Positions 3,198-24,077 of a stretch of 29,248 bases of DNA are shown here, in pieces (the first letter of the stretch is position 1; the number at the start of each line of letters is the position of its first letter). The notes below the pieces were generated by a model that saw nothing but the letters and a program-made list of their open reading frames with translations, did not search any database and was not told the origin of the DNA. Where the stretch lies: NCBI GenBank assembly GCA_964518085.1, contig CAZFEA010000001.1, forward strand, positions 1 through 29,248. Direction: 5' to 3'. Both the position numbers and the translations under genes were made by a program. The stretch comes from an uncultured Dehalococcoidia bacterium (GTDB lineage Bacteria > Chloroflexota > Dehalococcoidia > JACQUA01).

Positions 3198-4484
3198 TCA
3201 ATTCAGCTTTTGCGCCAGTATTCCGGTTAACCCCAGGTCGTCGATTCGTTTTCTGATGTCACTGACGGTTTGCGGGTAAAGTCCCAGCCTTATCATCCGC
3301 TCAAGATAGTCCCCCTGGCCGGGACGGCAAAGCTGGTTCAGTCCCTCCTGGGTCCGGTTTAACTCACCCGTGAAACTGATGTAGTCCCCTATCGCGGTGG
3401 TGGCAGGCAAAACGGGTGGTCCGGTGCCGGCCACTTTTCTTGAGGCGTTATGTCCGGCAATGACACCCATGATCATACAGGTGTCCACGCCGCCGATCGG
3501 CCCGATCTTTTCACCACCGACAAAAAGGTTGTCGAAACCTGGCACCCTCAGGCTGTCGTCCCGGTGATGGATGGATACCTCTTTGACGAAGGTATGGACA
3601 CCGCCGCCCATGGGGTCTTCGATCATGGCTGTCTCAAAACCGGGTATGGTGCGCAGGTCGGCCACAGACATATAGCCCATTTTCGAACACTTGGCCATAG
3701 AGCCTATGTCGGAAAGGTTGACGTGCTCGACTTCCTCGTGGGACGAGATATTGGCCATCTTGCCGGCTTTCGAGTAGTCTACGAGGTGTTTGGGAAGGGG
3801 AATCTTCATCTGTCCTTTTTGCTCGAGCTCTTCCCTCAACTCCTTGCCCAGGCTGGCTTTGCTCAAACAGACCGCCAGGCCGAGGAGACCCCTGGTGCCG
3901 TCGGCCCTTCTCTGACTCAACTCCCTGGCCCCGGCTTTGGTGGCGATGCTTACCCGGTTGCCGAACGTGGGACACCTGAAGCTTCCGCACATGACGCATC
4001 CCAGGCCGTAGCGCCGGCAGATGTCCATCCCGCCGGTGGTGCCGGTGCAATCGACAAAGGCGCCGCCTCGCAGGACTTCGCCGCTGGCGAGCCGGACCGC
4101 CTCCAACCGTCCATCCTCTGTCAGCACATCAACCGCCCGGCTCATGAATCGTATGTCGACTCCACAGTCCAGGACCAGTTTCTTGACCGCTGGCTCCGCC
4201 AGGGCGCAATTGTAGATGTATCCGTATTCCATGTCCGGCTCATATAGCCGGTGAAGAATGATGGCGTCCAGTACATCCAGGATATCGCCGCCGGCCATGG
4301 CCCTGAGCTCTTCATTCTGGACCATCCGCCCGGTCATGTTGTAATGTCCGGCTCGGTTTCCTCCGGCCAGAAGCATGTCGGTCCGTTCCAGCAAAATCGC
4401 CTTGAGTCCGGCCCTGGCCACGGCGATGGCCGCGCCACAGCCGGCAAATCCGCCCCCTATGACTATGACAGTGTCTTTAGACAA
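3198..4484 (-). CDS. FAD-dependent oxidoreductase, GidA/TrmFO-related uncharacterised family, with a Cys4 motif
   Basis: VIGGGFAGCGAA Rossmann motif; C-x6-C-x2-C-x4-C (CRRYGLGCVMCGSFRC); C-terminal LFVGGEK...AGHNA. AGGAGG overlaps GTG4490, so TTG4484 (5 nt after the RBS) is the likelier start. Confidence 0.75.
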   Translation of the reverse strand: MSKDTVIVIGGGFAGCGAAIAVARAGLKAILLERTDMLLAGGNRAGHYNMTGRMVQNEELRAMAGGDILDVLDAIILHRLYEPDMEYGYIYNCALAEPAVKKLVLDCGVDIRFMSRAVDVLTEDGRLEAVRLASGEVLRGGAFVDCTGTTGGMDICRRYGLGCVMCGSFRCPTFGNRVSIATKAGARELSQRRADGTRGLLGLAVCLSKASLGKELREELEQKGQMKIPLPKHLVDYSKAGKMANISSHEEVEHVNLSDIGSMAKCSKMGYMSVADLRTIPGFETAMIEDPMGGGVHTFVKEVSIHHRDDSLRVPGFDNLFVGGEKIGPIGGVDTCMIMGVIAGHNASRKVAGTGPPVLPATTAIGDYISFTGELNRTQEGLNQLCRPGQGDYLERMIRLGLYPQTVSDIRKRIDDLGLTGILAQKLN

Positions 4485-4513
4485 ATGCACCTCCTGGGAG
4501 TATTGGCTATCTC

Positions 4514-5074
4514 TCAGGCGAACTGGATCATCCCCAACTTGGTGAACTGAATAGGAACAGTGACCTCGGGCGGAAGTGCCCCGAGTTGATGGAGGGCATA
4601 TTCCTGCTCGTATTTTGTCATGGCCATGACCCCATCTATCGGGATGATGGTCTCATAGCGATAGATGCGCGCTGAGGCGGTAGCGGTGTAAAGCACCGCC
4701 ATGTTGGTGGCCGCCCCGACGATGACCAGGTTCTCTGTCTGCTTGTCCTTCAACAGGCCGTCGAGTTCGCCGCCGGTGAATTTGTCGAAGCCGTTGGGGT
4801 GGATGACTGGCTCGGTTTCCCGTTTCTTCAGGGAGGAGGCAGGCTCTCCCCCGGGTGTGCCCTTGTGGATAAGGGAGATGGTGTAAATAACCGGCACAGC
4901 CAAGGCCCGCGCCCTTTCCAGGAACTCGCTTACACCTGGAAGGAGCAAAGAGCAAAAGACCCTGGGGTCCTGGCATCTGGCGCTCAGATCGAGCACAATA
5001 ATGGCGGTCTTGTTCCGGGCGAGGGTGACTGGCTTTGGCTCCGGTTTGCGGGGTCCACCGTCTTCTATGATCAT
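4514..5074 (-). CDS. Isochorismatase/cysteine-hydrolase fold protein lacking the catalytic Cys
   Basis: TAIIVLDL (Asp), FDKFTGGELDGLLK, LVIVGAATNMAVLYTA, IPIDG. RBS AAGGA. Confidence 0.8.
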   Translation of the reverse strand: MIIEDGGPRKPEPKPVTLARNKTAIIVLDLSARCQDPRVFCSLLLPGVSEFLERARALAVPVIYTISLIHKGTPGGEPASSLKKRETEPVIHPNGFDKFTGGELDGLLKDKQTENLVIVGAATNMAVLYTATASARIYRYETIIPIDGVMAMTKYEQEYALHQLGALPPEVTVPIQFTKLGMIQFA

Positions 5075-5101: not shown

Positions 5102-7258
5102 CTACGGGACCGGTATCAGTTCGGTATCCAGCAAAATACCGCACGATGGGCAGCAGGTCTGTTCCAGCAAGAAATAACCGGTCAGGTCCGCCATGAGCGC
5201 TCCGGCTTCAGTAGGGGGCAGGAGTTTCACGGTACATGCTTCCTTCCATTTTCTTGGCTCGCTGGAAAGCACGGCCAGGCACCGCTGGCAACGTATGGCC
5301 GAACGGTTCCGGTTAACTATGATCTCCATGTTTCCCCGAAACGGGCGGGTCTTTTCCGTTGTGGGGCGCCTGCCATGGCCGACGGCGCCGCTTTGGGATG
5401 CTCGCGCCGGCTTGAGGCGCGTTGCTGGCCGGCCGTTGAGACGCTGGCGGATAAGGGCCGTCCGTAAGTGGCGCGTGTCATCAAGATTCAATTTGCCTCG
5501 ATCAACGACTACGCCGTAGTACTGTTCGGCCGCCGCGGAGGAAACAAGTCCATTCCTCAGATCTTGCACTACGATCTGCGGGTCCCTTTCCAGGGGGTCC
5601 CCGTAACCGCCTCCGCAGGCCATCCTGAGATAAAGGACATCGTTGACCTGCAGATCGATGTCCTGGTAGGCCAGAGCCATTTTTCTTCCCTTGAGTTCAG
5701 CAAGGTCAACCGGAGGGCGGTTTTGGGCGAAAAACGCCTCCAGCTTCGTACTTTCAAACAAGTTGAGAAGACTGGGCGCTCCGGGGTAACCGCCGAAAAG
5801 ACCCTTCCCCGAGTTCTTCAGCCCGGCCACTCCGAGGGCAACTACCTTGATTTTTCCTTCCGCGGGCTTATAGGGGGCAAGGGCTACCTCGGTCCCTGCG
5901 CCGCCCCGGTACTTTCCGGCGCCGGCGCCATCCACAATATGCCGTCGGAAAAGGTAGATGACGGGGAAGTTGAGCTCAACCCACTCCACGTTGTGGCATG
6001 TCATCCCGATGCTGCCGGCGCTGGACGAGTTCATACCATCCTTACAGGATGTTGCCCCGCTGCCTCCTGATTCCAGCAAGGTGGAGACGTAATATTTTCC
6101 GTACTGGCTGATGCCGGCGTGCCTGGCGAAGCGGCCCATCAAGGTCGGCGCCATGACCTCGCGTTTCCACTTTTCGCTTGCCGCCACTGCCTGCATCAGT
6201 ACCGAAGCGGCAAGGTGTTTGACGGCCTGGGCGCCGGAGGTGGTGTTCAGGGATACCGGGGCCGGGTTCTGGACATTGACCACGCACCCTTCAGGTGCGC
6301 TCACCTCCATCGGGCCGAAGGCGCCCTGGTTGCGCGGGATGTCATAGGCGAAAGTGCACAGGACTTCCTGGAAGCAACAACCGAAGGTGGCATGATAGGG
6401 CAGGTTGATGCCTTTTTCGGCCTGCCTGTCCGTCCCGGCAAAATCGAAAATCAGCCGGTCGCCTTTCTTGTTCAACGTCAGCTTTACCTTCCAGGATTTG
6501 TCGGCCTGGATGGACAGAGAATCAGTCCACGAACCGTCGGGAATTTCAGCTATCCTCTTCCGTAAGATAGATTCCGAATAGCGGATCATCTGGGCCGAAA
6601 CGGCCTGGATCAGTTCCAGCCCGTACTGCTTGATCATATCCTGCATTCTGGCCTTGGCGACGTTGTTGGCCGCAATTTCACATTTCAGGTCCAGGCCCAC
6701 CATCACCGGTTGCCGGGTCATGTTGACCACTGTCCTGAAAACGTCGTTTCGCGTCTGCCCCCGCTCGACCAGCTTGATCCCCGGGATCCTGATACCCTCG
6801 TGGCATATTTCGGTTGCCCCGGGGGAGTTCCCTCCGGGTGACATGGCACCAATGTCCATTACATGGACAAATGTGGCGCTCCAGCCGACGAGGCGGCCTT
6901 GGTAGTGAATCGGGGATACGACATACATGTCTGACTGGTGAATCGCGGCCAGATAGGGGTCATTCAGCAAGAACATGTCGTCGGGATAAATGTTGCCGTC
7001 CTTTCCGAACTGGTCGATAATCTTCTTCACGGCAAACCCGGCGCAAACGGCGTGCATTCCCATCATCGCCTGGCCCACCGATAGCACCTCGCCGGAAGGT
7101 GTGTACAGCGCCGCCAGGTAGTCTTTGAGCTGCGTGGTATTAACCGTGCCCCCCACGTGTTCCAGGGTAATAGCAATTTCCTTGGTGATCTGGTAGAGGC
7201 GATGAGACAGTATTTCAAAAGTAATGGGATCGACAGTTGACACCGGCGGCGCCTTCAT
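5102..7258 (-). CDS. Hydantoinase B/oxoprolinase/acetone-carboxylase-alpha family subunit fused to an acetone-carboxylase-gamma-like Cys4 domain
   Basis: DPITFEI, NDPYLAAIHQSD, HVMDIG, EGIRIP, GAGKYRGG, GGGYGDPLERD; C-terminal CQRC...WK...CCPSCGILLDTE. RBS AGGAG overlaps the upstream TAG. Confidence 0.88.
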   Translation of the reverse strand: MKAPPVSTVDPITFEILSHRLYQITKEIAITLEHVGGTVNTTQLKDYLAALYTPSGEVLSVGQAMMGMHAVCAGFAVKKIIDQFGKDGNIYPDDMFLLNDPYLAAIHQSDMYVVSPIHYQGRLVGWSATFVHVMDIGAMSPGGNSPGATEICHEGIRIPGIKLVERGQTRNDVFRTVVNMTRQPVMVGLDLKCEIAANNVAKARMQDMIKQYGLELIQAVSAQMIRYSESILRKRIAEIPDGSWTDSLSIQADKSWKVKLTLNKKGDRLIFDFAGTDRQAEKGINLPYHATFGCCFQEVLCTFAYDIPRNQGAFGPMEVSAPEGCVVNVQNPAPVSLNTTSGAQAVKHLAASVLMQAVAASEKWKREVMAPTLMGRFARHAGISQYGKYYVSTLLESGGSGATSCKDGMNSSSAGSIGMTCHNVEWVELNFPVIYLFRRHIVDGAGAGKYRGGAGTEVALAPYKPAEGKIKVVALGVAGLKNSGKGLFGGYPGAPSLLNLFESTKLEAFFAQNRPPVDLAELKGRKMALAYQDIDLQVNDVLYLRMACGGGYGDPLERDPQIVVQDLRNGLVSSAAAEQYYGVVVDRGKLNLDDTRHLRTALIRQRLNGRPATRLKPARASQSGAVGHGRRPTTEKTRPFRGNMEIIVNRNRSAIRCQRCLAVLSSEPRKWKEACTVKLLPPTEAGALMADLTGYFLLEQTCCPSCGILLDTELIPVP

Positions 7259-7267
7259 GACTATCTC

Positions 7268-9370
7268 CTACGACCGCAGAAAGATGACGATATTGCGAAA
7301 TTCATCCATGGTTGCTCGTGTGCCGGGGTTTACCACGACCGTGGTTACGGGTGTCTCGATTATGGCCGGGCCGGGCGCTTCGAATCCGGGTTGCATTCGT
7401 TCGAAATCGTAAATGTCTGTCGGTATAAACCCCCGGTGTTCTTCGAAGTATACCTCTCTACTGCCTTTTCGCGACCGTTCAGCCGGCGCCTTCTTGATGG
7501 CTTCTCTCTTGATATTGGGTTTTCTCAGGCGACCGATGGCGTCAATACGGAAGGTGGTGATCTCTTTTCCTGCCTCGGCATAGCCCGACCCTTTGCCATA
7601 GGACTTTTCATACAGTTCATCGAACAGAGAGTACAGCTTCTCCATGTCCCCCGGACTAATATCAGTCATTCCCGCCGGAAAGGGCACGTTCAACTCGTGG
7701 ACCTGGAACCGGTATCTCATATCTACGCTGCGAACGATTTCGATATCGTCGTTTCCAAACCCCGCGGCATGGAGTTGCTCCAGCGCCTGTGCGCACAGGC
7801 TGGAGAAGTTGGCATTGACGCGGTCAACATCTACCGGGACCATCAGCCTGTCTGACCTGGCAAATTGATGGACTACGTCGGAACTTATCAGCCCCATCGC
7901 CCCCTGGACGGAGGCGGTCATGGGGACGACGATCTTTTTGATCCCGAGTTCCGCCGCGAACCTTCCGGCGTGCACCGGTCCGGCGCCGCCGTAAGCAAAA
8001 AGGGCGAAGTTCCGCGGATCGTTGCCTCTCTCGACCGTGGCGCGGCGCACGAGATCACACATATGAGCATTGGCTATGCGAAAGATGCCGTTGGCGGCCT
8101 CAGTTTCGCCCAGGTTCAGCGGGTGGGCAATCTTCTCTCTAATGGCTTGCAGCGCTGCCTGTTTGTCCAGCCTCATTCGTCCACCCAGGAAATAGTCCTC
8201 GTTGAGATAACCCAGCACCAGGTCGGCGTCAGAGACGGTGGGTTCCGTCCCTCCCATCCCGTAGCAGACCGGTCCCGGTTTCGCCCCGGCGCCTTGAGGT
8301 CCCACTTTCAGCAAGCCTGTCTCGGAATCGATCCAGGCGATGCTTCCCCCGCCGGCTCCAATCGATTCGATCCATATTTTCGGCGACAAAATGTTATAGC
8401 GCAGGATAACCGGTGCATATTCCCTTTCGCACGTGCCATCCCGGATTATGCCAACCTTGAAGGTAGTGCCACCCATATCCGTAGCCAGGATGTTGCGTTC
8501 GCCGCTCAGGTCACCAAGGAACTTGCTGCCCAGCACTCCGGCGGCGGGCCCGGACTCAATGGTACCGATGGCGTTCCGGCTGGTCGCCCGCATGCTCAGG
8601 ACGCCGCCGTAGGCCTGCATTACCATAGGTTCTTCCCGCAACCCCCTGGAGTGCAACGCTTTCAAAAGGTCCTGAAGGTAAGAAGAAATTTCGGGGCCGA
8701 TATAGGCGCTGAAAATGGTGGTGGCAGTGCGCTCATATTCGCCAAGGAGAGGGGCCACCTCGCTCGAAATGGCTACATGCACCGATGGGTGATTCGCTTT
8801 CAGTATGCCGGCCAGCGCCTTTTCGTGGCGGTCATTGGCGAGGGACCATAGGAGGCAGATGGCGACCGAGTCCACCCCCTTTTCGATTAACTCTTTGACA
8901 ACCCGGGCAGCATCCGCCGTGTCGAGGCTAATCAGGACGTCACCCTTGTAGTCGATACGCTCATTCACTTCTGTGATGAGAGGCCTGGTAACCAGGGGTT
9001 CTGGCTTGGTAAGGGCTGACAGGTGAGACGCCTCGGTTTCCGTCAGTCCTTCGGTCACCTTGCTTCGCATTATGAGGATGGTGTCCGCGAAGCCCCTGGT
9101 GGTTATAAGGCCGGTCCTGGCCCCGGAACGCGTTATGAGGATGTTTTCTCCCACCGTGCAGGCATGGAAAAAGTACTTTGTCCGCCGGATGAGCTCATCT
9201 TCGCTGGCCAAACCAAGTTTTTCTGACAGGTCGCGAACCGAGTCGATGACGCCGATAGAGAAGTCGCCGGGCGTGGACAATGCTTTTCCCAGGGACAACC
9301 GGCCGTGTTCATCGACTCCTACACAGTCGGTAAATGTCCCGCCAATGTCCACCCCTATTATGTATTCCAT
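7268..9370 (-). CDS. Hydantoinase A/oxoprolinase (ATP-binding, acetone-carboxylase-beta family) subunit
   Basis: IGVDIGGTFTD, SGPAAG, DMGGTTF, IGAGGGSIAW, GPVCYGMGGTEPTVSDA, GGAGPVH, DMRY. Confidence 0.92.
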   Translation of the reverse strand: MEYIIGVDIGGTFTDCVGVDEHGRLSLGKALSTPGDFSIGVIDSVRDLSEKLGLASEDELIRRTKYFFHACTVGENILITRSGARTGLITTRGFADTILIMRSKVTEGLTETEASHLSALTKPEPLVTRPLITEVNERIDYKGDVLISLDTADAARVVKELIEKGVDSVAICLLWSLANDRHEKALAGILKANHPSVHVAISSEVAPLLGEYERTATTIFSAYIGPEISSYLQDLLKALHSRGLREEPMVMQAYGGVLSMRATSRNAIGTIESGPAAGVLGSKFLGDLSGERNILATDMGGTTFKVGIIRDGTCEREYAPVILRYNILSPKIWIESIGAGGGSIAWIDSETGLLKVGPQGAGAKPGPVCYGMGGTEPTVSDADLVLGYLNEDYFLGGRMRLDKQAALQAIREKIAHPLNLGETEAANGIFRIANAHMCDLVRRATVERGNDPRNFALFAYGGAGPVHAGRFAAELGIKKIVVPMTASVQGAMGLISSDVVHQFARSDRLMVPVDVDRVNANFSSLCAQALEQLHAAGFGNDDIEIVRSVDMRYRFQVHELNVPFPAGMTDISPGDMEKLYSLFDELYEKSYGKGSGYAEAGKEITTFRIDAIGRLRKPNIKREAIKKAPAERSRKGSREVYFEEHRGFIPTDIYDFERMQPGFEAPGPAIIETPVTTVVVNPGTRATMDEFRNIVIFLRS

Positions 9371-9400: not shown

Positions 9401-10570
9401 TTACTTTTGCATCACCGGCCTGAATATTTCTTTAGCTAGCTGGATCAGCTTGGGTCTCTCGATCATTTGCTCTTCACTGTCAGTCGATATCAGTTTGGCC
9501 CCTTCCTGGGGCACGTATGCCGGATCGATTCCTGAAGTGTCTACGTCGGCCCGGGCGCTGGGAGGTCCGTAGTTCTTCTGAAACAGGGCTTGCGTGTCTT
9601 TAGTCAGTAGCCAGTTGACGAACACTATGGCCGCATTGGGGTTGGCAGGCCGGTCGATGAGGGATACCACGCCGCCGCTGTAGGTCAAGCCAATTCCCTC
9701 ATGGGCGGCCTTCCATTTTATGGGAGCCCCGGCCCTCTTGAACTCGTCGAAGGTCTGGACATCCGGAGCAATAGACAAGGGGTATTTGTTTCTGGCCAGC
9801 CACTCAACCTGCTGGCGCTTGTCGGCGATCAGTAGCGGCTCTTGCTTTACAAACTGCTGCAGGTAGTCTTTGCCTCCATCTTGACCAAAAATGGCAAACA
9901 TCAACGCCACCCAATAGCTACCTCCCCCCGATATGGTTGGGTCCATTGTGGTTATCTTGCCTTTCCACTTGGGGTCGAGGAGGTCGCGGTAAGACTTAAT
10001 TTCGGCTTCCTGGACCGCGTCGGAATTCGCAGCCAGAAAACTGGCAGTCCGATGAACGAATGCCAGGGACAGTCCTGTTTGATCGACCAAGGGGAGTTCC
10101 TTGCCGCGCCATTTGGTAGCATCGGTAACCTCCGGCAAGATCAGGGCAGGCTTCAACGGTTGTAACACGCCCTGTGGCTTCATGATCAGCAGCAGTGTCG
10201 AAGTTCCCGCGATCACGGCATCAGCCAGGTATAGCCCGGCCCTTCTTTCGGCCTGGATGCGGGCCATGGACTCCTCACCTCTGCCAACGATAAAATCGAT
10301 ATTGATGCCGAACTGTTGCCTGAACGCTTCTTTTAGAGCCTGAGTGGTCGCCGGGTTGGCCGAGGTGTGGACCACCACCGTACCTTCGGTCCTGGCTTTG
10401 GCGACGGTGCTGTCCCACCGGGCTTGCCACGAGGATTTTTCCGGGCCGGTTTGCGCCGCCGTGGTTGGTTTGGTTGGACCAGGCGACAAAGGAGCCGCCG
10501 GCCCCCCACAGGCAACAGCTATGGTGAGAAGAATACCGGCAAAAGGCAATAATAGATGACTGGCTTTCAT
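9401..10570 (-). CDS. Extracellular solute-binding lipoprotein (Fe3+/thiamine/polyamine-type, COG1840-like), no cognate permease nearby
   Basis: Signal peptide with lipobox IAVAC, Pro/Thr-rich linker, WKGKITTMDP, NPNAAIVFVNWLLTKDTQ. ATGA overlap with the upstream gene. Confidence 0.85.
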   Translation of the reverse strand: MKASHLLLPFAGILLTIAVACGGPAAPLSPGPTKPTTAAQTGPEKSSWQARWDSTVAKARTEGTVVVHTSANPATTQALKEAFRQQFGINIDFIVGRGEESMARIQAERRAGLYLADAVIAGTSTLLLIMKPQGVLQPLKPALILPEVTDATKWRGKELPLVDQTGLSLAFVHRTASFLAANSDAVQEAEIKSYRDLLDPKWKGKITTMDPTISGGGSYWVALMFAIFGQDGGKDYLQQFVKQEPLLIADKRQQVEWLARNKYPLSIAPDVQTFDEFKRAGAPIKWKAAHEGIGLTYSGGVVSLIDRPANPNAAIVFVNWLLTKDTQALFQKNYGPPSARADVDTSGIDPAYVPQEGAKLISTDSEEQMIERPKLIQLAKEIFRPVMQK

Positions 10571-12168: not shown

Positions 12169-12261
12169 CTGTCTGTTTCCCTTAAAGCAGGTTTGAGAAT
12201 TGTACTGCAATTGCTTATGGAGTGTGACTGTCGGCCAGGATGTTCATGACCTGGTCCGAAC

Positions 12262-12336: not shown

Positions 12337-12366
12337 ATAATAGATTATTGGCGCTGTCTGTGTCAA
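12337..12366 (-). promoter_or_regulatory. Sigma70-type promoter for operon A
   Basis: Minus strand TTGACA (12366-12361), 18 nt, TATTAT (12342-12337). Confidence 0.55.
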
Positions 12367-15343: not shown

Positions 15344-15344
15344 G

Positions 15345-16328: not shown

Positions 16329-16350
16329 GTGGCTTGCCTGCTTTCAGATG

Positions 16351-17963: not shown

Positions 17964-17999
17964 CCTATTTTCCTTCAATCCGAAGTCGGTATGCTATCA

Positions 18000-18082
18000 T
18001 CCGCCTCCAGGACCAGGATTTCGCAGACCAAAGGTAAACGATAAGCCCTTACCATTTCTAGCAGCAAAAGTCCTGGAGCGGA
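18000..18082. other. Long imperfect inverted repeat / stem-loop in the intergenic region
   Basis: TCCGC(C)TCCAGGAC at 18000-18013 pairs with GTCCTGGAGCGGA at 18070-18082 (13 bp, one bulge); inner GGTAA/TTACC hairpin. Confidence 0.55.
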
Positions 18083-18084
18083 CT

Positions 18085-19220
18085 TCATTTACGCAGGGCG
18101 GAGAAAATCTCGCCTACCCTGTCGCGGATCGCCGCCTGGGTGCGCAGGTAGGCTTCATCGGGAACGCTCGCCCCCGCGGGTGGCAGCACCAGCGGATCGA
18201 AACTGTCGGTGGGAACATCCACTCGCTGCGACGGGAAGCCCTGGGCCGGGGCCCACACCGAGGCGCCTTCCTTGCTCACCAGCCAGTTGACAAAGAGTTT
18301 TACCGCGTTGGGGTGAGGGGCCTTATCGAAAACGAAGAGATTACCGGCGCCCGAAGCCAGGAAAGGCGGCTCCTTCAAAATGGTGAAAGCTATCGGGGCG
18401 CCCAATTTCTTGAACTCGGTGAACATGGCCGAGCTCTGTCCGATGCCTACAGGGTATTTCCCGCGGGCCACCCATTCCAGCATCATGCGCTGGTCCCTGG
18501 TCATGACCGGTTCATTGGCCGCCAACTGGCGCAGTATTTCCAGCGTCCCGTCGACGCCGAAGATTTCCTTGGCCATGAGGGTGATGAAGCTGAGGGATGC
18601 GCCGGGGACGGCCGGGTCCGACAGCACCATCTTGCCCTTCCACTTCGGCCCGACGTAATCCAGGAAGGAGGTTATTTCTCCTTCCCTTATTATGTCGGTG
18701 TTGTGGATAGAGGGCCGGTTGGCCATGGCCACAGTTACCAGGAGATGGCGGTCTTCGTCCAGGTAGGGAATCTTCCCGTTGCGCCACCTGCCCGGGTCGG
18801 TGACCTCGGGCAAGACCAGCAGTTCCGGCAGGGGAACAGTGATCGCCATGGGCTTGATGTCAACAAAAAATGGACCGTTTCCGGTCAGGCCGGCGTCGGC
18901 CCAGTAGAGTCCGGCCCTTCTCTCGGCCTTGATCTTGGCAATGACCTCGGTGGCGCGTCCCTCAGTGGCTTCGATGTCTATGCCGAATTTTGCCTTGAAG
19001 GCCCGCTGGATGGCGGCTTTGGCCGGGCCCCAGTCCGAGCCAACAGGTTCACCGTGCCCTCCTTCTGGGCGGCCTTGACCAGCTCGTCCCACGAGTTGGC
19101 CGGGGGCGCCGGCGCCCTGACCGGCGGCGTGGGGGCGCCCGTGGGCTGGGCCGGCGCCGCGCAGGCGACGATCAGGACCATCAGAAACGCTGCACCAATC
19201 AAACTTGAACACTTTTTCAT
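18085..19220 (-). pseudogene. Solute-binding lipoprotein paralog split by a 1-nt deletion at about 19039-19041
   Basis: ATG19220 (RBS AGGAG) gives MKKCSS...IVAC...QKEGTVNLL in one frame; the homologous remainder SDWGPAKAAIQRAFKAKFGIDIE...FSALRK is in the -1 frame. Junction: GTG AAC CTG TTG GC TCG GAC TGG. Confidence 0.8.
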
Positions 19221-19328
19221 CGTATCTCTCCTTGCCTCGCAGATTAACAACGAATGGATCGGGTCATGCGCCTGAGGCGTACCATCAAGGACGAAAATTG
19301 GCCTATCAACGCGAGGAGGCCCGATTTC

Positions 19329-19420
19329 CCTCCCCCTTTCGCAAAAGGGGGATACAGGGGGATTTGCCCTGGACAGCTTTTTTTCAAATCCCCCTTAGTC
19401 CCCCTTTTTCAAAGGGGGAG
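19329..19420. repeat. Inverted pair of family-1 REP-like elements (REPIN/BIME-like)
   Basis: 19331-19365 forward and 19386-19419 reverse, 20-nt spacer; the reverse copy matches 1693-1726 at 32/34. Confidence 0.85.
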
Positions 19421-19430: not shown

Positions 19431-19479
19431 TGTCACCTGTTGCCTGTTACCTGTTGCCTTTTTCCTTTCGCCTTTTACC
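19431..19479. repeat. Seven degenerate tandem heptamers TKTYDCC
   Basis: TGTCACC TGTTGCC TGTTACC TGTTGCC TTTTTCC TTTCGCC TTTTACC; the last base overlaps the stop codon of the 19479-20237 gene. Confidence 0.8.
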
Positions 19480-20237
19480 TATTGATACAGCGTCCGGAAA
19501 ATCCTCCCCCAGGCCTTGACCGGCTCTTTGATACCCAGCGCCTTGAGTCCGGCCCAGATGGTGACCTGCCGGCTGTGAATGGCCGGGACGCCGCAGTCCT
19601 GTTCCAGACGATCAATGACCCACGGGGGACACCAGGCGCCGCAAGGGAGATATATGGCTTCCGCCTGAGGCGCCTCCAGGAACGCCTGCCTGCCCACGGC
19701 ATAAGCCGCGCTCCGCGGCAGGTCGTCGATATCGCGGTTCAGCGTCAGGTTGAGACTCTTTATATGGATTACCTCGAAGCCGCTGGACTCCAGGAATCTT
19801 TTGGTCCGCTGGTCCGATTCCTGGTTCATGGGCGAAGCGATAACCAGCTTTTTAACTTTCAAGGTGCGAAGGGCATCGACGGCGGCAGTCAGAGAGGTGG
19901 TTGCCGGGACCCTGGCCACCTCTTTCACGCGCCGGATGATTTGCTGGTCAGCCCCCGGTCCCTGCATCGAGACCAGCGGCGTCCCTTCGACGAAAATGAA
20001 TTGGGAGCCGGCCGCGGCCAGTCGCTTGACGGCATCGTCCAGCTTGGACAGGGCCGTTTCCACCTGGTCGTCGGTGAGGGAGGTTATTCCCAGGGTGGCA
20101 ATCTTCAGTTCCAGGCCGTCGGGCACGGCGGAATGGAAGTCCACCAGGGCCAGAGACGATGGGGTGGCGGGGCAGACCCAGCCCAGTTTTCCCCTCCATC
20201 CGGCTACGCCGTCGGTTGCTGGTATGTCAGCAGGCAT
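19479..20237 (-). CDS. Asp/Glu racemase superfamily, maleate isomerase/arylmalonate decarboxylase-like protein with a single catalytic Cys
   Basis: KLGWVCP, FVEGTPL, VPATTSLTAAVDALRTL, IYLPCGAW, GVPAIHS...WAGLKALG. RBS AAGGAG. Confidence 0.85.
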   Translation of the reverse strand: MPADIPATDGVAGWRGKLGWVCPATPSSLALVDFHSAVPDGLELKIATLGITSLTDDQVETALSKLDDAVKRLAAAGSQFIFVEGTPLVSMQGPGADQQIIRRVKEVARVPATTSLTAAVDALRTLKVKKLVIASPMNQESDQRTKRFLESSGFEVIHIKSLNLTLNRDIDDLPRSAAYAVGRQAFLEAPQAEAIYLPCGAWCPPWVIDRLEQDCGVPAIHSRQVTIWAGLKALGIKEPVKAWGRIFRTLYQ

Positions 20238-20255: not shown

Positions 20256-20284
20256 TGTCATTGCGAGCGCAGCGAAGCAATCCC
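20256..20284 (+). repeat. REP-like palindrome TGTCATTGCGAGCGCAGCGAAGCAATCCC
   Basis: ATTGC...GCAAT arms around a GCGCAGCGA core; resembles a widespread GTCATTGCGAG...GCAATC intergenic repeat type (recalled, not searched). Confidence 0.55.
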
Positions 20285-20287
20285 GTC

Positions 20288-20323
20288 CCCCTCACCTTAA
20301 TCCTCTCCCTCAAGGGGAGAGGA
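20288..20323 (-). repeat. REP-like element family 2 (TCCTCTCCCC-TTGA-GGGAGAGGATTAAGGTGAGGGG)
   Basis: Matches 24192-24227 at 34/36 in inverted orientation; contains the TAA stop of the 20297-21997 gene. Confidence 0.85.
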
Positions 20324-21997
20324 AACCGATGTCACGCCATAGATGCTTTTCGCCGCTTCGGCGGTGATGTACCCGTTCTCCAGGTCCGCCAGCACTTTGC
20401 TTCTCCCCCGCTCATGCGGGTCGCCGACTCCGCCGCCGCCGCACAGCTCGAGCCGCAGGATGTCACCCGATTTCAAGATAACATCCCCGACGCGGGCGGG
20501 CAACCGCCGCTCGGTGGGAGAATCCGGGTTAACTATCGCCGCCCCCCTTCTGCCCGCCATGCCTCCCCCGACCCCCCAGGGCTCCATGACAAACTTGTCG
20601 CTCCGGGTGCTCAGCCGGGTCTCTTCGCCAAGCATGAGATATTCCCGGACATAGCCCGGGCCACCCCGGAATTTGCCCGGACCGCCTGAATCGGGAATGA
20701 GGTGAAATTGCAGGAACCTCACCGGGAACTCTGCTTCCAGTATCTCCAGCGGGGCCAGTTTTATCGCCTGGTTGCTGCACCTCAGGCCGGCCCCGAATCC
20801 CCCGTCGTCCCCGTCCACCGCCCCGGCGCCGGAGCGGAGTATTTCGTATTGCACGTAGGACTGCCCCGCTTCGGTCCTGCCGCCCATGGCCATGGTCTGG
20901 CCGCCACCGCTGCAGGCGATGGCTTTTCGTCCGGCCAGTTTGGCCAGGGTGGCCACGACCATTTCGGTGGCCAGTATCAGCGTTTGGGCGTAGCAGTTGA
21001 CCGGCGCCGGAAGGGCAGGGTTGGTAACTGTCTTCTCGCCGCAGTTAACCGCGATGCAGCGGTGCAGCCCGTAGTTATTGGGCAGCCTGGGGTCGACCAT
21101 GGCAATCACGCCGTAGTAGCAGGCCGCCCTCACCAGGGGCGGACGGAGATTCACCGGCCCCTTGCATTGCGGCGCGCTGCCGGAGAAATCGAAAAGGACC
21201 CGGTCTTGTTCCTTGACCACGGAAAGGTGAAGCCTGACCGGCCTTTCCAGGTCAATGCCGTCGTTGTCCAGGAAAGCCTCCATTTCAGCCCGGCCGTCCG
21301 GCCACCGGGCGATCTCGGACCTGACCCTCTTTTCAGTGATGTCGAACAGTTCTTCGAAACAGCCCAGAACCAGTCCCTTGCCGTACTTGTTCATCAGGTT
21401 TTCGACCCGCATCTCCCCCAGGCGGCAGGTGCCTATCTGGCCCTGGATATCGCCCAGCACCACGTCGGGCGTTCTGCTGTTGGCCCTTATGATTGCCTCG
21501 ATTTCTTTCGACAGCTTCTGCCCGCGGGCGCATTTTACCGGTGGAAAGTGAATCCCCTCGTGAAATATTTCCCGCGCCTGGCCGGACCCGCTGCCGGGGA
21601 CCAGTCCGCCCAGGTCGCTCTTATGGGCCATGCTACCGCAAAAACCCACCAGTTCGCTGTCATGGAAGACGGGGGTAATTACCGCCATGTCCATGGCGTG
21701 CGGGCTTCCTCCGAGATAGGGATGGTTTACCAGAAAGGCGTCGCCGGGGGCGATTTCTTCATAGGGATAGCTTTGCAGGAGGGATTCTATGATCGCCGGA
21801 AACGACCCGATATGGAAGTAAATGGTGATGTGCTGGCCAACCAGCCTGCCCTTCCGGTCGAGGATGGCGCAACTGGCGTCTTGAGACTCGCGGATAATAG
21901 TCGAATAGCCGGTCCGGAACAGCGACGTCTCCATCTCCCGGACTATTCCCGAAAGACTGCTGCTTATTACTTCAAGGGTTATGGGGTCAATGGCCAT
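20297..21997 (-). CDS. Hydantoinase B/oxoprolinase family subunit (second paralog, no gamma fusion)
   Basis: DPITLEV, STIIRESQDASCA, NHPYLGGSPHAMD, AHKSDLGG, HEGIHFPPV, GPGKFRGG, GGGGVGDPHER. Confidence 0.92.
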   Translation of the reverse strand: MAIDPITLEVISSSLSGIVREMETSLFRTGYSTIIRESQDASCAILDRKGRLVGQHITIYFHIGSFPAIIESLLQSYPYEEIAPGDAFLVNHPYLGGSPHAMDMAVITPVFHDSELVGFCGSMAHKSDLGGLVPGSGSGQAREIFHEGIHFPPVKCARGQKLSKEIEAIIRANSRTPDVVLGDIQGQIGTCRLGEMRVENLMNKYGKGLVLGCFEELFDITEKRVRSEIARWPDGRAEMEAFLDNDGIDLERPVRLHLSVVKEQDRVLFDFSGSAPQCKGPVNLRPPLVRAACYYGVIAMVDPRLPNNYGLHRCIAVNCGEKTVTNPALPAPVNCYAQTLILATEMVVATLAKLAGRKAIACSGGGQTMAMGGRTEAGQSYVQYEILRSGAGAVDGDDGGFGAGLRCSNQAIKLAPLEILEAEFPVRFLQFHLIPDSGGPGKFRGGPGYVREYLMLGEETRLSTRSDKFVMEPWGVGGGMAGRRGAAIVNPDSPTERRLPARVGDVILKSGDILRLELCGGGGVGDPHERGRSKVLADLENGYITAEAAKSIYGVTSVSSPLEGED

Positions 21998-24077
21998 GCT
22001 TATTCAAATCCGCTTCCTTCACTGTAATGATAATGTTTCCATACCGGTCGACCCGCCCCGACTGGCCGGGACAGATGACCGTGGACGAGTCCATCTGCTC
22101 AATGACACAGGGCCCCGGGATCAGGTGACCGGGCCCCAGCAAATCCCTTTCATAGATAGGACATCCGGCGTCGCCGCCGAACTCGCCGAAGTATAAATGC
22201 CTGTGGCCCTTGACCGCGGCCTCCGGGCCGCGGGCTGCCGGTGAGGATTCTTTGATAGCCAGTTTGGGTACCTTGACCTGCGACACCACGCGGTAGTTGA
22301 CGATGTCCACCGGGGCCGCCTCGGCCTTGTGGCCAAAGAGTTTTTCGTGCATTTCGTCAAACCGTGACCTTATCAACGCCAGGTCCGGCTGCTCAAGATG
22401 TCCGCCCGGTGCGGGTACGATAAGCTCATATCCCTGGCCGGAATAGCGCAGGTCCAGGTAGAACGTCAGATCCACCTCAACCTCGGAGAAGCCCTCATCC
22501 AGCAATTCGCGCACTGCCTGGCTCTTCAGGTCATCGAACTGGGCGTTGACTCCATCAACACGCGTTTTGGCCAGGGACTGGAGTCGTGACCGGGCATAAT
22601 CATGCCTGACGTCCGACATGAGCAGACCCATGGCCGAGGTCAACCCCGGCGCCGGGGGAACGAGGACTGTCGGAATTCCCAGGGCAGCCGCCAGCATGCC
22701 GCCGTGGACCGGCCCGGCGCCGCCAAAGGCCACCAGGGCAAACTGGCGCAGGTCGTAGCCCCTTTCCGAGGAAACCGCCTTTATGGCCTGCTCCATGTTC
22801 ACATTTACGATTCTCAGGATGCCCTCGGCCGCCTTGACTGTGTCGATACCAAGAGGAATCCCGATCTTTTGCCTGATGGCTTCTTCTGCCCGCTGCCTGT
22901 TCAGCTTTATCTTGCCGCCCAGGAAATTTTCGGCATTGAGGTATCCCAGCACCAGGTTGGCATCGGTGACCGTCGGATCGGTCCCGCCCTTGTCATAGCA
23001 GGCCGGGCCGGGGTCGGCGCCGGCGCTTCGCGGCCCCACTTTGGGTACCCCCAGGTTGTCGATCCAGGCGATGCTGCCGCCCCCCGCCCCGATGGTGTTG
23101 ATGTCTATCAGCGGAGTGGCCGCTTCCCATTTCCCGACCTGTCCGGTTGTTACCTGTACCGCTTCGCCGTCTTCCAACAAGGCGATGTCCGAGCTGGTGC
23201 CGCCAACATCGAAAGTGATGGCATTTCGAAAACCCGCCCGCACCGCCAGTTCCCTCCCGGCGATGACCCCCGCTGCCGGTCCCGACAGGATGGCGGGCAC
23301 CGCTTTGGTTGAGGCCATGCCGAAGGTTGACACCCCCCCGTTGCATTGCATTACATAACGTTCGTTGGTGACCACCCCAGCCTGTACCAGCTTCTGCTGT
23401 ATATTGCCCAGGTACCGGGCCAGAACGGGGGCGATGGAAGCGTTCACCAGCGTCGTGGAAAGTCGCAGGTATTCGCGGATTTGGGGGATCACTTCCGTGG
23501 ACAGAGAGACCGATATTGCCGGATATTGCTCCTTGATGATCGCTTTGAGCCGGGTTTCATGCTCCGGGTTCATGAAGGAATGCAACAGGCATACCGCTAT
23601 GGACTCGACATTCCTGTTCACCAGCCGGGCCACGGCCTCCCGGGCCTGTCGCTGGTCGAGAGGGGTCAGTACTTTTCCTCGGAAATCTATCCTCTCATGG
23701 ATATCCTCGCAGAAACGTGGTTCGAGCAGGCCTTTCGGCATCTCGGCATAAAGGTCGTAAAGGCTGGGACCGGTCATGGCCCCCTGGTAGATGTCGTTGA
23801 TCCCGCGAAGGCCCCCGGTCACCAGGGCGCCGACCCTGGCGCCCCTGTCCTGGAGCAGGGCATTGGTGCCCACGGTAGTGCCGTGGGAAAAGAAGGCGAC
23901 ATCCGCCGGTCTCACCTTTTTCTGGAACAACTGCTTCATCCCTGCATCCACTGCTTCCGAGGGGTCCCTGGGCACCGAAGGCACCTTGATGTGAAGTACG
24001 TCGCTCGTCTCCTCGTTGAAGATGACGAAGTCGGTGAAGGTGCCGCCGACATCGACTCCGATTCTGTAGCGTGCTAT
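21987..24077 (-). CDS. Hydantoinase A/oxoprolinase family subunit (second paralog); apparent ATA start codon
   Basis: Frame extends 31 codons upstream of the track's GTG23984 and includes RIGVDVGGTFTD. AGGAG is 7 nt before ATA24077; in-frame TGA at 24095-24093. Motifs HGTTVGTN, SGPAAG, DVGGTS, GAGGGSIAW. Confidence 0.88.
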   Translation of the reverse strand: MARYRIGVDVGGTFTDFVIFNEETSDVLHIKVPSVPRDPSEAVDAGMKQLFQKKVRPADVAFFSHGTTVGTNALLQDRGARVGALVTGGLRGINDIYQGAMTGPSLYDLYAEMPKGLLEPRFCEDIHERIDFRGKVLTPLDQRQAREAVARLVNRNVESIAVCLLHSFMNPEHETRLKAIIKEQYPAISVSLSTEVIPQIREYLRLSTTLVNASIAPVLARYLGNIQQKLVQAGVVTNERYVMQCNGGVSTFGMASTKAVPAILSGPAAGVIAGRELAVRAGFRNAITFDVGGTSSDIALLEDGEAVQVTTGQVGKWEAATPLIDINTIGAGGGSIAWIDNLGVPKVGPRSAGADPGPACYDKGGTDPTVTDANLVLGYLNAENFLGGKIKLNRQRAEEAIRQKIGIPLGIDTVKAAEGILRIVNVNMEQAIKAVSSERGYDLRQFALVAFGGAGPVHGGMLAAALGIPTVLVPPAPGLTSAMGLLMSDVRHDYARSRLQSLAKTRVDGVNAQFDDLKSQAVRELLDEGFSEVEVDLTFYLDLRYSGQGYELIVPAPGGHLEQPDLALIRSRFDEMHEKLFGHKAEAAPVDIVNYRVVSQVKVPKLAIKESSPAARGPEAAVKGHRHLYFGEFGGDAGCPIYERDLLGPGHLIPGPCVIEQMDSSTVICPGQSGRVDRYGNIIITVKEADLNKHGH

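Follow-up and report, generated by a model that had tools for sequence, protein, structure and literature searches.

Introduction

Acetone (Acx) and acetophenone (Apc) carboxylases share a gamma subunit that is absent from all Hyd complexes (PMC5214803), and Weidenweber et al. caution that architecture within this family is no guide to function. In the indoleacetate route, the iaa partner genes encode a CoA ligase, a CoA transferase, a B12 mutase and an acyl-CoA dehydrogenase (PMC8360864). Here we compare these and related systems with a locus of an uncultured groundwater bacterium of the Dehalococcoidia (Chloroflexota). The window, by which we mean the whole 29,248-nt stretch analysed (contig CAZFEA010000001.1, assembly GCA_964518085.1), carries two HyuA-HyuB pairs together with a molybdenum (Mo) hydroxylase, an amidase and a decarboxylase-like protein. 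With a probability of about 0.6, we read this locus as a real, densely packed catabolic island, a patchwork whose modules were inherited separately and not one conserved N-heterocycle/lactam pathway.

Layout of the locus

Pfam and NCBIfam profile searches found every gene family that a preliminary description of the sequence had named at 3198-24077, bearing out its gene content and coordinates (Table 1). The proteins had been called uncharacterised members of these families, and none of those encoded at 3198-24077 reaches an NCBIfam orthologue cut-off. The Mo hydroxylase had also been placed between two operons. The left one (module 1) stands: g8, g7, HyuA1, HyuB1, g4 and g3 follow one another on the minus strand from 12210 to 3198 with gaps of -4 to 30 nt. 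Across a 277-nt divergent control region common to both operons lie the plus-strand genes for the 2Fe-2S, Mo and FAD subunits (module 2, 12488-16328). The right-hand "operon" is less secure. Its minus-strand genes, running from 24077 to 16351 as HyuA2, HyuB2 (module 5), g15, the solute-binding protein (SBP) g14 (module 4), the 64-aa ORF g13 and the amidase g12 (module 3), are broken up by gaps of 59, 261 and 106 nt, two of them containing very high-copy REP-like hairpin repeats, and probably belong to at least three transcription units.

The left-operon/Mo junction (11218-14037) is bridged by independent contigs from groundwater metagenome runs, as is the Mo/amidase/SBP junction (15313-19345), where 22 nt lie between the end of g12 and the Mo operon. 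The divergent region and this close spacing, both at confirmed junctions, count against a patchwork.

At the repeats, every independent contig breaks and none spans (19345-19393, 20284-20294 and 24114-24212). Could these very high-copy repeats have joined g15 and the HyuA2-HyuB2 cassette, which R2 and its inverted copy bracket, to a part of the genome where they do not belong? The repeats exceed their flanks in word depth by a factor of hundreds to thousands (for R1, ~740-12,400x against 2-40x), and in two runs an isolated contig of 892 nt carries g15. Against this, the depth of unique segments covaries over four runs on both sides of the repeats (~34-38x, 21-24x, 3-6x and 2-6x), which fits one genome, and the original 29-kb contig was presumably built with read pairs. 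Such an assembly artefact is distinctly improbable.

Two reading frames call for comment. Runs X1 and X4 contain a variant of g14 in which one extra T gives an uninterrupted frame of 378 aa. Where HyuA2 homologues start with ATG or GTG, this window has ATA (end coordinate 24077), and the first canonical start codon of HyuA2 comes only after its ASKHA phosphate-1 motif.

Table 1. Features of the locus in window coordinates.
Feature	Position	Strand	Remarks
g3, GidA/TrmFO-like FAD protein	3198..4490	-	conserved Cys motif C158, C165, C168, C173
g4, isochorismatase-fold protein	4514..5074	-	without Cys and Lys of cysteine-hydrolase triad
HyuB1, beta subunit, 718 aa	5102..7258	-	C-terminal fusion; best PDB sequence match ApcD (5l9w_A)
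Gamma-subunit-like four-Cys domain of HyuB1	5105..5365	-	~aa 632-718; presumed Zn-binding
HyuA1	7268..9370	-	80% identity to L030 orthologue
g7, lipoprotein solute-binding protein	9401..10570	-	SBP_bac_8/11/6, weakly PhnS-like; overlaps g8 by 4 nt
g8, SdhA/NadB/TfrA-like FAD flavoprotein	10567..12210	-	first gene of left operon; profile match
Candidate sigma-70-like promoter	12337..12366	-	TTGACA-18-TATTAT, 11/12; upstream of g8, within the 277-nt divergent region; consensus match only
g9, [2Fe-2S] small subunit of Mo hydroxylase	12488..12994	+	
g10, Mo-binding large subunit, xanthine-dehydrogenase family	12998..15343	+	best PDB match 4-hydroxybenzoyl-CoA reductase (4-HBCR) alpha, 243 bits
g11, FAD medium subunit	15345..16328	+	Cys-rich insertion C119, C134, C142, C160
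g12, amidase-signature amidase	16351..17787	-	triad K82/S157/S181 intact; convergent with g11
g13, partner ORF, 59-64 aa	17784..17978	-	weakly GatC-like; 4-nt overlap with amidase start
g14, lipoprotein SBP	18085..19220	-	frameshifted near 19042 in this window
R1, REP-like hairpin repeat as inverted pair	19329..19420	no strand	also at 1652-1727
g15, arylmalonate-decarboxylase (AMDase)-like	19479..20237	-	Asp/Glu-racemase fold
R2, 39-nt REP-like repeat	20288..20326	no strand	overlaps last codons of HyuB2
HyuB2, beta subunit, 566 aa	20297..21997	-	without gamma domain; 26% identity to HyuB1
HyuA2, alpha subunit, 696 aa	21987..24077	-	read from ATA codon preceded by AGGAGA
R2, inverted copy	24189-24227	no strand	upstream of HyuA2

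A HyuA-HyuB module with carboxylase-like architecture

The HyuA1-HyuB1 module encodes an unusual enzyme, predicted to be driven by ATP, that has the build of a ketone carboxylase, and the main new point is the gamma domain fused to HyuB1. The cysteines of this domain (Cys657, 660, 703 and 706) are invariant in 26 homologues, 21 of which match PF08882. Its AF2 model (pLDDT 93.9) retrieves Acx/Apc gamma subunits as the top five Foldseek hits, with TM scores of 0.72-0.77 ahead of a cliff to 0.33, and these are its sole strong fold matches. Pair 1 had been described as an ATP-dependent hydantoinase A/B pair but is not a plain one: its B subunit is fused to a domain known so far from acetone and acetophenone carboxylases alone (PMC5214803). 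HyuA1 would phosphorylate a carbonyl substrate in its enol or iminol form at the expense of ATP, and the metal site of HyuB1 would process the product. Given where gamma subunits are known from, carboxylation of an enolisable carbonyl would be at least as likely as lactam hydrolysis, although the gamma domain has no known catalytic role and the inference of a carboxylase is a weak one.

The D-K-C triad of isochorismatase-like hydrolases reads D-P-A in g4. Judged from its sequence, g4 cannot act as a cysteine amidohydrolase through a Cys-thioester mechanism, because the Cys is replaced by Ala and the Lys by Pro, and both are missing from all three orthologues compared (Ala at the Cys position in 3/3). 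It is probably an accessory subunit or a non-nucleophilic hydrolase, and it adjoins HyuB1 also in a related MAG (72%) and a Binatia MAG (55%). By alignment, three of the four FrdA/SdhA substrate-site positions are substituted in g8 (HPT to EVG, the catalytic Arg to Thr and a second Arg to Ser). Of two relatives' loci screened for g8, L030 and L031, neither contains it; in L030 a 76% orthologue of g3 lies within the same module. The earlier statement that most enzymes have altered active sites was too broad: it holds clearly for g4 and g8 and partly for g15, while the amidase has an intact triad, the Mo subunit retains its conserved Glu and the HyuA proteins retain their ATP motifs.

HyuA/B proteins beside an isochorismatase-fold protein and FAD proteins also recall, superficially and by family, a creatinine/N-methylhydantoin-type route, in which module 1 would supply an N-methylhydantoinase dependent on ATP, an N-carbamoylsarcosine amidase of the isochorismatase family and a flavoprotein that oxidises sarcosine. 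Among the PDB matches of HyuB1, the N-methylhydantoinase 7hk5 does rank second. However, the loss of the catalytic Cys and Lys of g4 extends to every orthologue compared, a gamma domain has never been reported in hydantoinases, the flavoproteins are GidA/TrmFO-like and SdhA-like and not of the sarcosine-oxidase/DAO type, and a creatinine deaminase gene is absent. This route is barely credible.

The molybdenum enzyme and conservation in relatives

From its sequence, module 2 is a Mo enzyme of the PaoABC/4-hydroxybenzoyl-CoA-reductase type with an extra Cys-rich, presumed [4Fe-4S], insertion. Its large subunit, g10, belongs to a sharply bounded group of ~25 orthologues from MAGs, with identities of 61-82% followed by a drop to 40%. 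Genomic contexts were inspected for six orthologues of the Mo enzyme, three of g15 and three of HyuB1. In the six Mo-enzyme contexts (71-81% identity), nothing recurs except the 2Fe2S-Mo-FAD trio, and three of the FAD subunits carry a GltD-like NAD(P)H module as an insertion. The neighbours are UbiD decarboxylases, TctC and other binding proteins, aldehyde:ferredoxin oxidoreductases (AFOR), cupins, an OYE-like protein and NAPRTase; since the first three of these types point to such substrates, the enzyme may hydroxylate or reductively dehydroxylate an imported (hetero)aromatic carboxylate.

In the closest MAG, GCA_041642995.1, each of the three modules tested is present, so the modules may co-occur at the level of whole genomes, but each lies on a contig of its own (69-106 kb): contig 29 has the left module (HyuA1 80%, HyuB1 71%, g4 72%, g3 76%), contig 83 the Mo trio (81%) and contig 67 a g15 orthologue (69%). 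HyuB1 and g4 recur together in the Binatia MAG. Orthologues of g15 adjoin binding-protein paralogues in all three contexts, one of which has a pair-2-like Hyu pair nearby. Among 17 metagenome loci with relatives of pair 2, only the A/B pair is held in common with this stretch, and no pair 2 orthologue above 60% identity was found. No amidase homologue occurs in the 31 loci fetched for the other modules.

The preliminary description had proposed a candidate anaerobic N-heterocycle/lactam degradation system. Spelled out, this model joins all 17 genes in one N-heterocycle pathway. The Mo enzyme would produce the lactam (2-oxo) tautomer, the hydantoinase pairs would spend ATP on ring opening, the linear product would pass to the amidase and to the decarboxylase-like protein, the flavoproteins would catalyse redox steps and the binding proteins would import the substrate. 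Tight clustering, with the shared divergent region and both confirmed junctions, favours this scheme, as does the lactamase-type make-up of pair 2, and the chemistry fits the indoleacetate and nicotinate precedents (in part PMC5214803). Nevertheless, a hydantoinase or amidase accompanies the Mo enzyme in 0/6 contexts, the modules are dispersed over three contigs in the closest MAG, and the other genes are missing beside pair 2 relatives. The architecture of pair 1 is of the carboxylase type, g4 is no cysteine amidohydrolase, and the dissimilarity of the three binding proteins suggests that three ligands are imported. As the genes for the most part do not co-occur in the other genomes inspected, a single system is unlikely.

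The patchwork of independent breakdown modules is suggested by the way in which relatives carry the genes, namely as separate blocks. The conserved blocks are HyuA1-HyuB1 with the isochorismatase-like protein and the GidA-like flavoprotein, the Mo trio, the decarboxylase-like gene with binding proteins, and HyuA2-HyuB2. A lipoprotein binding protein belongs to, or adjoins, each of three modules. The three binding proteins are mutually distant (34-40% identity), as are the two Hyu pairs (B subunits 26%, A subunits 39%). There is no support for a juxtaposition beyond chance expectation: relatives do not conserve the arrangement, and their genomes are rich in paralogues of these families. The modules may still cooperate in this one organism, a lack of conserved synteny being no proof against it.

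The right-hand modules

The amidase g12 is more GatA-like (310 bits) than AtzE-like (214 bits) and forms a block with its GatC-like partner, to which it is translationally coupled in this window. The partner family is rare, with only two other cluster representatives, and GatC provides the top two PDB matches of its profile at a marginal E of 0.017. Together they would free ammonia from a linear amide in an AtzE-AtzG build. Beside a binding-protein paralogue, here as in relatives, g15 would be an AMDase-type single-Cys decarboxylase, with Gly74 and Cys188 in AMDase numbering; it is not a two-Cys isomerase or racemase. HyuA2-HyuB2 would be a canonical alpha-beta enzyme of lactam-opening make-up, set between inverted REP-like repeats.

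The Mo operon and the right-hand genes could also be read together as the "oxidative" pyrimidine/barbiturate route in a form that needs no O2. The Rhodococcus pyrimidine pathway comprises uracil dehydrogenase, barbiturase and ureidomalonase. Here the Mo enzyme would hydroxylate a pyrimidine-like ring, ATP-dependent ring opening would replace barbiturase, the amidase-signature enzyme would cleave the ureido/amide product and the AMDase-like protein would decarboxylate the (substituted) malonate. Only the families match: a Mo hydroxylase, an amidase of the amidase-signature family and a decarboxylase fold of malonate type that shows the single-Cys AMDase pattern. The route fails on synteny in the same way as the single pathway, the UbiD, TctC and AFOR genes beside Mo-enzyme orthologues point to aromatic carboxylates rather than pyrimidines, g15 retains just part of the dioxyanion hole (S76 replaced by P, Y126 by M), and urease or urea-handling genes are absent from the window. 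We regard it as very improbable, and retain the patchwork of modules.

Comparison with known systems

Anaerobic indoleacetate degradation had been named as the known precedent for the locus, with caprolactamase CapAB sharing parts of its logic. Among lactam-opening enzymes, IaaCE of that route and CapAB do match the alpha-beta make-up of pair 2 (696 + 566 aa, against 696 + 581 in CapAB and 707 + 564 in IaaCE; PMC8453981), which has the ATP phosphate-1 motif. The remaining genes that define the indoleacetate route are missing, none of the iaa partner genes being found in the window by profile searches. Pair 2 scores 552 and 263 against the CapA and CapB models (cut-offs of 1000), and unlike CapAB, N-methylhydantoinase and IaaCE it starts with ATA.

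Translational coupling to a ~60-aa protein with GatC as best profile match likens g12 to the 1-carboxybiuret hydrolase AtzE-AtzG and to GatA-GatC, but its NCBIfam scores are under the cut-offs (AtzE 295 against 426 bits, GatA 355 against 481) and no GatB accompanies g12-g13. With AMDase and the maleate isomerase NicE, g15 shares the fold, and Gly74 and Cys188 are as in AMDase, but it scores 95.6 bits (cut-off 225) and two dioxyanion-hole residues are replaced. Similarly, g4 has the fold and triad Asp of N-carbamoylsarcosine amidase, BiuH, NicF, RutB and PncA without their Cys and Lys.

The Mo hydroxylase is a three-subunit 2Fe2S/Mo/FAD enzyme like HcrABC and PaoABC, and the insertion of g11 is as in PaoB, 5y6q_B and 4-HBCR beta. 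Yet 4-HBCR alpha, also the best NCBIfam match of g10, gives 396 bits against a cut-off of 994.6, and the enzyme belongs to a separate orthologue group. In a further difference from HcrABC, a CoA ligase is not adjacent.

Module 1 resembles Acx in its gene order (HyuA-like, HyuB-like, gamma), and both Acx and Apc in the four conserved Cys and the fold of its gamma domain; the best structural sequence match of HyuB1 likewise comes from Apc. The ApcC and ApcD scores are 439 and 208 against a cut-off of 1500. The HyuB1 core (~605-630 aa) is closer to the Hyd type (~564-594 aa) than to ApcD (684 aa) or to the HyuB-like subunit of acetone carboxylase (776 aa). Unlike Apc, module 1 has no alpha-prime or epsilon subunit. 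In contrast to both AcxABC and ApcABCDE, its gamma is fused to beta instead of forming a separate subunit, and it adds a triad-less isochorismatase-fold partner and a GidA-like flavoprotein.

Organization and assembly of the locus

The gene inventory that the preliminary description gave for 3198-24077 is borne out by an ORF listing and by Pfam and NCBIfam scans, and no protein of this interval reaches an NCBIfam equivalog cut-off. The left operon comprises six tightly packed genes (gaps of -4 to 30 nt) running from 12210 down to 3198. The 277-nt divergent region between g8 and the molybdenum (Mo) enzyme trio contains an 11/12 sigma-70-like match facing g8; a promoter and terminator scan of the window was not above shuffled expectation save for one 11/12 promoter match. 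No Rfam family, Moco riboswitch included, and no tRNA was detected in the window, and searches found no RNA-seq runs containing the locus.

Features of the locus and its flanks (SBP, lipoprotein solute-binding protein)
Feature	Position	Strand	Description
MTHFR gene	315-1679		MTHFR domain fused to the MTHFR C-terminal zinc-ribbon domain (DUF5981)
Repeat	1652-1727		REP-like hairpin repeat
g8	left operon, gene 1	-	SdhA/NadB-like flavoprotein
g7	left operon, gene 2	-	lipoprotein SBP
HyuA1	left operon, gene 3	-	700 aa
HyuB1	left operon, gene 4	-	718 aa
g4	left operon, gene 5	-	isochorismatase-fold protein, 186 aa
g3	left operon, gene 6	-	GidA/TrmFO-like FAD protein, 430 aa
2Fe2S-Mo-FAD trio (g9-g10-g11)	12488-16328	+	divergent from g8
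Right-hand genes	24077 down to 16351	-	HyuA2, HyuB2, g15, SBP g14, g13, amidase g12; convergent with the Mo trio
g14	18085-19220	-	SBP gene, frameshifted at about 19042
R1	19329-19420		REP-like hairpin repeat
R2	20288-20326		REP-like hairpin repeat
R2, inverted copy	24189-24227		REP-like hairpin repeat
Toxin and putative antitoxin	24287-24759		RelE/ParE-type toxin (84 aa) with upstream 71-aa putative antitoxin
Three-gene group	24768-29219		carboxyltransferase, flavoprotein, SBP

The locus derives from groundwater metagenomes, and its nearest named relatives are Chloroflexi/Chloroflexota MAGs. Since single independent contigs cross 11218-14037 and 15313-19345, the Mo operon truly adjoins the gene sets on both sides. 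The right-hand “operon” is interrupted by REP-like hairpin repeats, with the two R2 copies bracketing HyuA2-HyuB2. Words of these repeats occur at depths of hundreds to ~12,000x in the groundwater runs vs 2-40x in unique flanks, and every independent contig ends at them, so the placement of g15 and of the HyuA2-HyuB2 pair (pair 2) rests on the original assembly. Depth varies in parallel in the four runs, consistent with one genome.

The repeats are GC-rich, intergenic and fall into two families; the first R2 copy overlaps the HyuB2 3' end, such that the last few HyuB2 codons are repeat sequence. The toxin (PF05016, E 3.9e-13) and its putative antitoxin lie between the right-hand genes and the next gene. 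Beyond them are a PycB/OadA-like carboxyltransferase of 505 aa without a biotin-carrier domain and a second flavoprotein, SdhA/TfrA-like and of 584 aa, whose gene overlaps by 4 nt an SBP gene that runs past the window edge; these three genes may be a further module. At the other end of the window, the true start of the MTHFR gene is probably upstream of the listed TTG, because the Pfam match begins at profile position 67.

Conserved blocks, probably not one pathway

The genes of 3198-24077 had been proposed to form a single anaerobic system for the degradation of N-heterocycles or lactams. The gene content of related genomes largely contradicts this for the whole set. Six contexts of Mo-enzyme orthologues were inspected, reaching as far as 10 kb to either side; the trio is intact in all six, and in none does a hydantoinase A or B gene or an amidase lie beside it. 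Its neighbors differ between contexts: a Chloroflexi locus (L007) has three UbiD decarboxylases, SBPs and a cupin, TctC receptors occur in three contexts and aldehyde:ferredoxin oxidoreductases in two, and an OYE-like reductase and an NAPRTase are also seen. The clearest case is the related MAG GCA_041642995.1, which has the parts on three contigs of 69-106 kb: contig 29 carries an SBP, HyuA1 (80%), HyuB1 (71%), g4 (72%), two SBPs and g3 (76%), contig 83 the Mo trio (81%), and contig 67 an orthologue of the arylmalonate decarboxylase (AMDase)-like g15 (69%). In the three contexts available, orthologues of g15 (~25, at 53-71%) are always accompanied by SBP paralogues and often by additional AMDase paralogues; one of the three has a pair-2-like hydantoinase pair (51%) 7 kb away, and none has an amidase. 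Seventeen metagenome loci with relatives of pair 2 (mostly 44-54%) have only the A/B pair in common, and no homologue of the amidase occurs in the 31 fetched loci. The two hydantoinase pairs of the stretch are distant paralogues that share 26% identity in the B and 39% in the A subunits, and the three SBPs are 34-40% identical to one another, a divergence which suggests that they bind different ligands.

Smaller blocks are conserved in relatives, and the comparative evidence does not support a unifying pathway. We therefore favor, at a probability of roughly 60%, reading 3198-24077 as a patchwork island whose catabolic modules were inherited independently of one another but may still cooperate in this single organism. 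What looked like an appealing 21-kb “pathway” thus lacks support and resolves into smaller, separately testable units, a caution that in such paralogue-rich genomes the adjacency of genes is by itself weak evidence that they share a pathway.

The HyuA1-HyuB1 module

The block most worth pursuing comprises HyuA1, HyuB1, g4 and g3 (module 1), in which a beta-gamma-fused hydantoinase/ketone-carboxylase unit is joined by an isochorismatase-fold partner without its triad. HyuB1 belongs to a clade of more than 1,200 proteins (E <= 1e-40) with long (~700-745 aa) and short (~600-610 aa) forms, and its best PDB sequence match is ApcD. The C-terminal extension of the long form, ~87 aa, is a domain equivalent to the gamma subunit of acetone and acetophenone carboxylases (Acx/Apc). 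All 26 homologues compared keep its four Cys (CxxC ... CPxC), and 21 of them match PF08882 (acetone carboxylase gamma subunit; best E 3.8e-8). An AlphaFold model built on the homologue alignment (pLDDT 93.9) finds strong Foldseek matches only in acetone carboxylase gamma (5m45_C, 5svc_C, 5svb_C/F) and acetophenone carboxylase gamma (5l9w_C), at TM 0.72-0.77 before a cliff to 0.33.

In addition to GCA_041642995.1, g4 adjoins HyuB1 in a Binatia MAG (55%). Its Asp-Lys-Cys triad reads D-P-A, a departure from the isochorismatase-like cysteine hydrolases (CSHase, BiuH, NicF, RutB). Because Ala occupies the position of the nucleophilic Cys in all three orthologues, roles as an N-carbamoylsarcosine, biuret or maleamate amidase are ruled out, and loss of the triad likewise excludes a creatinine-type route for module 1; g4 more likely has an accessory function or one that needs no nucleophile. 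The flavoprotein g3, found in the related MAG at 76%, keeps a four-Cys motif, and a single-sequence AlphaFold model of this protein (pLDDT 35) was too low in confidence for a fold search. Fumarate reductase, succinate dehydrogenase and L-aspartate oxidase need dicarboxylate-binding and catalytic His/Arg residues; g8, at the head of the operon, has EVG for HPT, Thr for the catalytic Arg and Ser for the second Arg, with one His kept, and so is neither a fumarate reductase nor an aspartate oxidase.

A scan of genome contigs with HyuB1 returned a single locus, in Binatia. There the HyuB1-isochorismatase-like pair occurs twice within 8 kb (L009, 2199-4673 and 9884-12427), with HyuA truncated, amid integrase and AAA-ATPase genes, which indicates a duplication tied to mobile elements.

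The Mo enzyme

The Mo large subunit falls in a sharply bounded orthologue group of ~25 proteins at 61-82% identity, followed by a drop to 40%; an exact-match search with the window's own subunit gave no match. Its best matches are the alpha subunit of 4-hydroxybenzoyl-CoA reductase (4-HBCR; 243 bits, PDB) and 6-hydroxypseudooxynicotine dehydrogenase, and the conserved C-terminal Glu is intact. In the FAD subunit g11, the four residues C119, C134, C142 and C160 line up with the cysteines that PaoB and 5y6q_B have in their Cys-rich insertion, and may ligate a putative [4Fe-4S] cluster; 4-HBCR beta (1rm6_B) also matches g11 across this region.

The FAD subunit of three of the six orthologues carries, after the Cys-rich insertion, an inserted GltD-like module of ~450 aa (Fer4_20 + Pyr_redox_2), seen in loci L003 (12343-14709) and L008 (12343-14682) and in the context of P0019. 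This suggests that the enzyme of those lineages is coupled to NAD(P)(H), and we know of no earlier description of such a module within an FAD subunit of the xanthine dehydrogenase (XDH) family. Because orthologue contexts hold TctC, UbiD and AFOR, we infer that the substrate may be an imported (hetero)aromatic carboxylate. The clade, in which some members have this NAD(P)H module inserted, offers a second well-defined target for study.

Amidase, decarboxylase-like protein and binding proteins

Amidase g12 matches GatA at 310 bits vs 214 for AtzE (6c62_A) in the PDB, and its catalytic triad (K82/S157/S181) is intact. A housekeeping GatA is ruled out by a score below cut-off and by the lack of GatB. 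The start of g12 is overlapped by 4 nt by g13, a 64-aa ORF from a rare family: 1.84 billion proteins yielded just two further cluster representatives. Alone, g13 has no Pfam, NCBIfam or PDB match; the top two PDB matches of a three-sequence profile are GatC, at marginal E-values of 0.017 and 0.062, lending weak support to an AtzE-AtzG-like arrangement.

AMDase uses a single catalytic Cys188 with Gly74 and a dioxyanion hole of T75, S76, Y126 and G189. Of these, g15 keeps G74, T75, C188 and G189 and has P for S76 and M for Y126. Since the single-Cys pattern is kept, g15 is predicted to be of decarboxylase rather than racemase or isomerase type, and the single Cys excludes a maleate isomerase or racemase. 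The earlier statement that most enzymes here have altered active sites thus holds for g4 and g8 and in part for g15, but not for g12, the Mo subunit or the HyuA proteins, whose ATP motifs are intact.

Beside g15, an extra T in contigs of runs X1 and X4 restores g14 to a 378-aa lipoprotein, whereas contigs of X2 and X3 lack the insertion (X3 and X4 are at only ~3-5x); this one-base indel polymorphism reflects either strain-level pseudogenisation or an assembly error. Related Chloroflexi contigs (L007, L027, L028, L029 and L030) show paralogue expansions within 20 kb, with up to ten such SBP genes, three or four AMDase-like genes and several UbiD genes, and no ABC permease or ATPase gene lies beside those SBPs.

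The second hydantoinase pair

Pair 2 (696 and 566 aa) lacks gamma, a make-up that it shares with CapAB and IaaCE (PMC8453981), and by this analogy is the only part of the locus for which ATP-dependent lactam opening would be the default reading. A metagenome scan with HyuB2 gave relatives at 44-54% over most of the protein and one 145-residue fragment at 59%, and yielded no close orthologue context for the pair.

HyuA2 has no canonical start. A TGA stop precedes, in the same frame, its conserved N-terminus (ARYRIGVDVGGTFTD, the ATP phosphate-1 motif); the reading begins at an ATA codon (24075-24077, minus strand) preceded by AGGAGA, a good Shine-Dalgarno sequence, with the stop six codons upstream. 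Homologues have ATG or GTG at the aligned position, save one in L029 (17302) with ATC, again just past a stop codon. A truncated pseudogene is ruled out, as three independent runs agree on the ATA and the L029 homologue has its ATC at the same position; initiation at a non-canonical (AUH) codon may instead be conserved in this lineage.

Significance

The core of module 1 (HyuA1-HyuB1::gamma-isochorismatase-like-flavoprotein) blurs the sole architectural rule proposed for these enzymes, by which ATP-dependent carboxylases have gamma and lactamases do not. The HyuB1 clade is large and has no characterized member, and a function for it would improve the annotation of more than 1,000 “N-methylhydantoinase B” genes in subsurface MAGs. 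Assigning module 1 a function could also bring to light a new reaction by which anaerobes activate carbonyls with ATP. A bolder and rather improbable proposal is that the beta-gamma fusion, a catalytically re-purposed isochorismatase-fold subunit and the GidA-like flavoprotein carry out such a reaction, perhaps by carboxylating a cyclic ketone or lactam or processing it reductively, and that the module may also have been recruited here beside a new Mo hydroxylase, the two forming a new anaerobic pathway for some aromatic or N-heteroaromatic acid.

Comparison with characterized systems

No paper on this combination of genes turned up in literature searches, and each module appears to depart from its characterized enzyme relatives. 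Orthologues of CapAB, Apc, 4-HBCR, AtzE and AMDase are ruled out, all scores being below cut-off. Against the CapAB models NF050156/NF050157 (cut-off 1000 bits), HyuA1 and HyuB1 score 567 and 211, and HyuA2 and HyuB2 552 and 263. The Mo trio scores 396 vs 994.6, 174 vs 404.6 and 180 vs 257.8 with the 4-HBCR models TIGR03194/03195/03193; g12 reaches 294.6 with the AtzE model TIGR02715 (cut-off 425.75 bits) and g15 95.6 with the AMDase equivalog NF052327 (cut-off 225 bits).

The iaa cluster includes a CoA ligase (IaaB), a CoA transferase (IaaL), a B12 mutase (IaaGH) and an acyl-CoA dehydrogenase (IaaF) (PMC8360864). No AMP-binding, CoA-transferase, B12-mutase or acyl-CoA dehydrogenase domain occurs in the window ORFs scanned, and the absence of these four partner functions rules out an iaa cluster. 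Pair 2 agrees with its hydantoinase-like pair (IaaCE, ~707 and 564 aa, no gamma) at family level only.

By analogy with the ketone carboxylases, module 1 might be an ATP- and bicarbonate-dependent ketone carboxylase. To our knowledge gamma has no known catalytic role, one reason for holding this reading tentatively; the other is the caution that such features do not allow function to be inferred (Weidenweber et al., PMC5214803). Pair 1 (HyuA1-HyuB1) scores 439 and 208 bits with the ApcC and ApcD models, vs a cut-off of 1500, and Apc has alpha-prime and epsilon subunits, whereas no second HyuA-like gene adjoins pair 1. Gamma, with its four conserved Cys, is found in Acx and Apc and in no Hyd (lactamase) complex, and the acx gene order is alpha-beta-gamma (Weidenweber et al., PMC5214803). 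Module 1 is therefore of carboxylase-type make-up, with gamma carried as a C-terminal fusion to beta.
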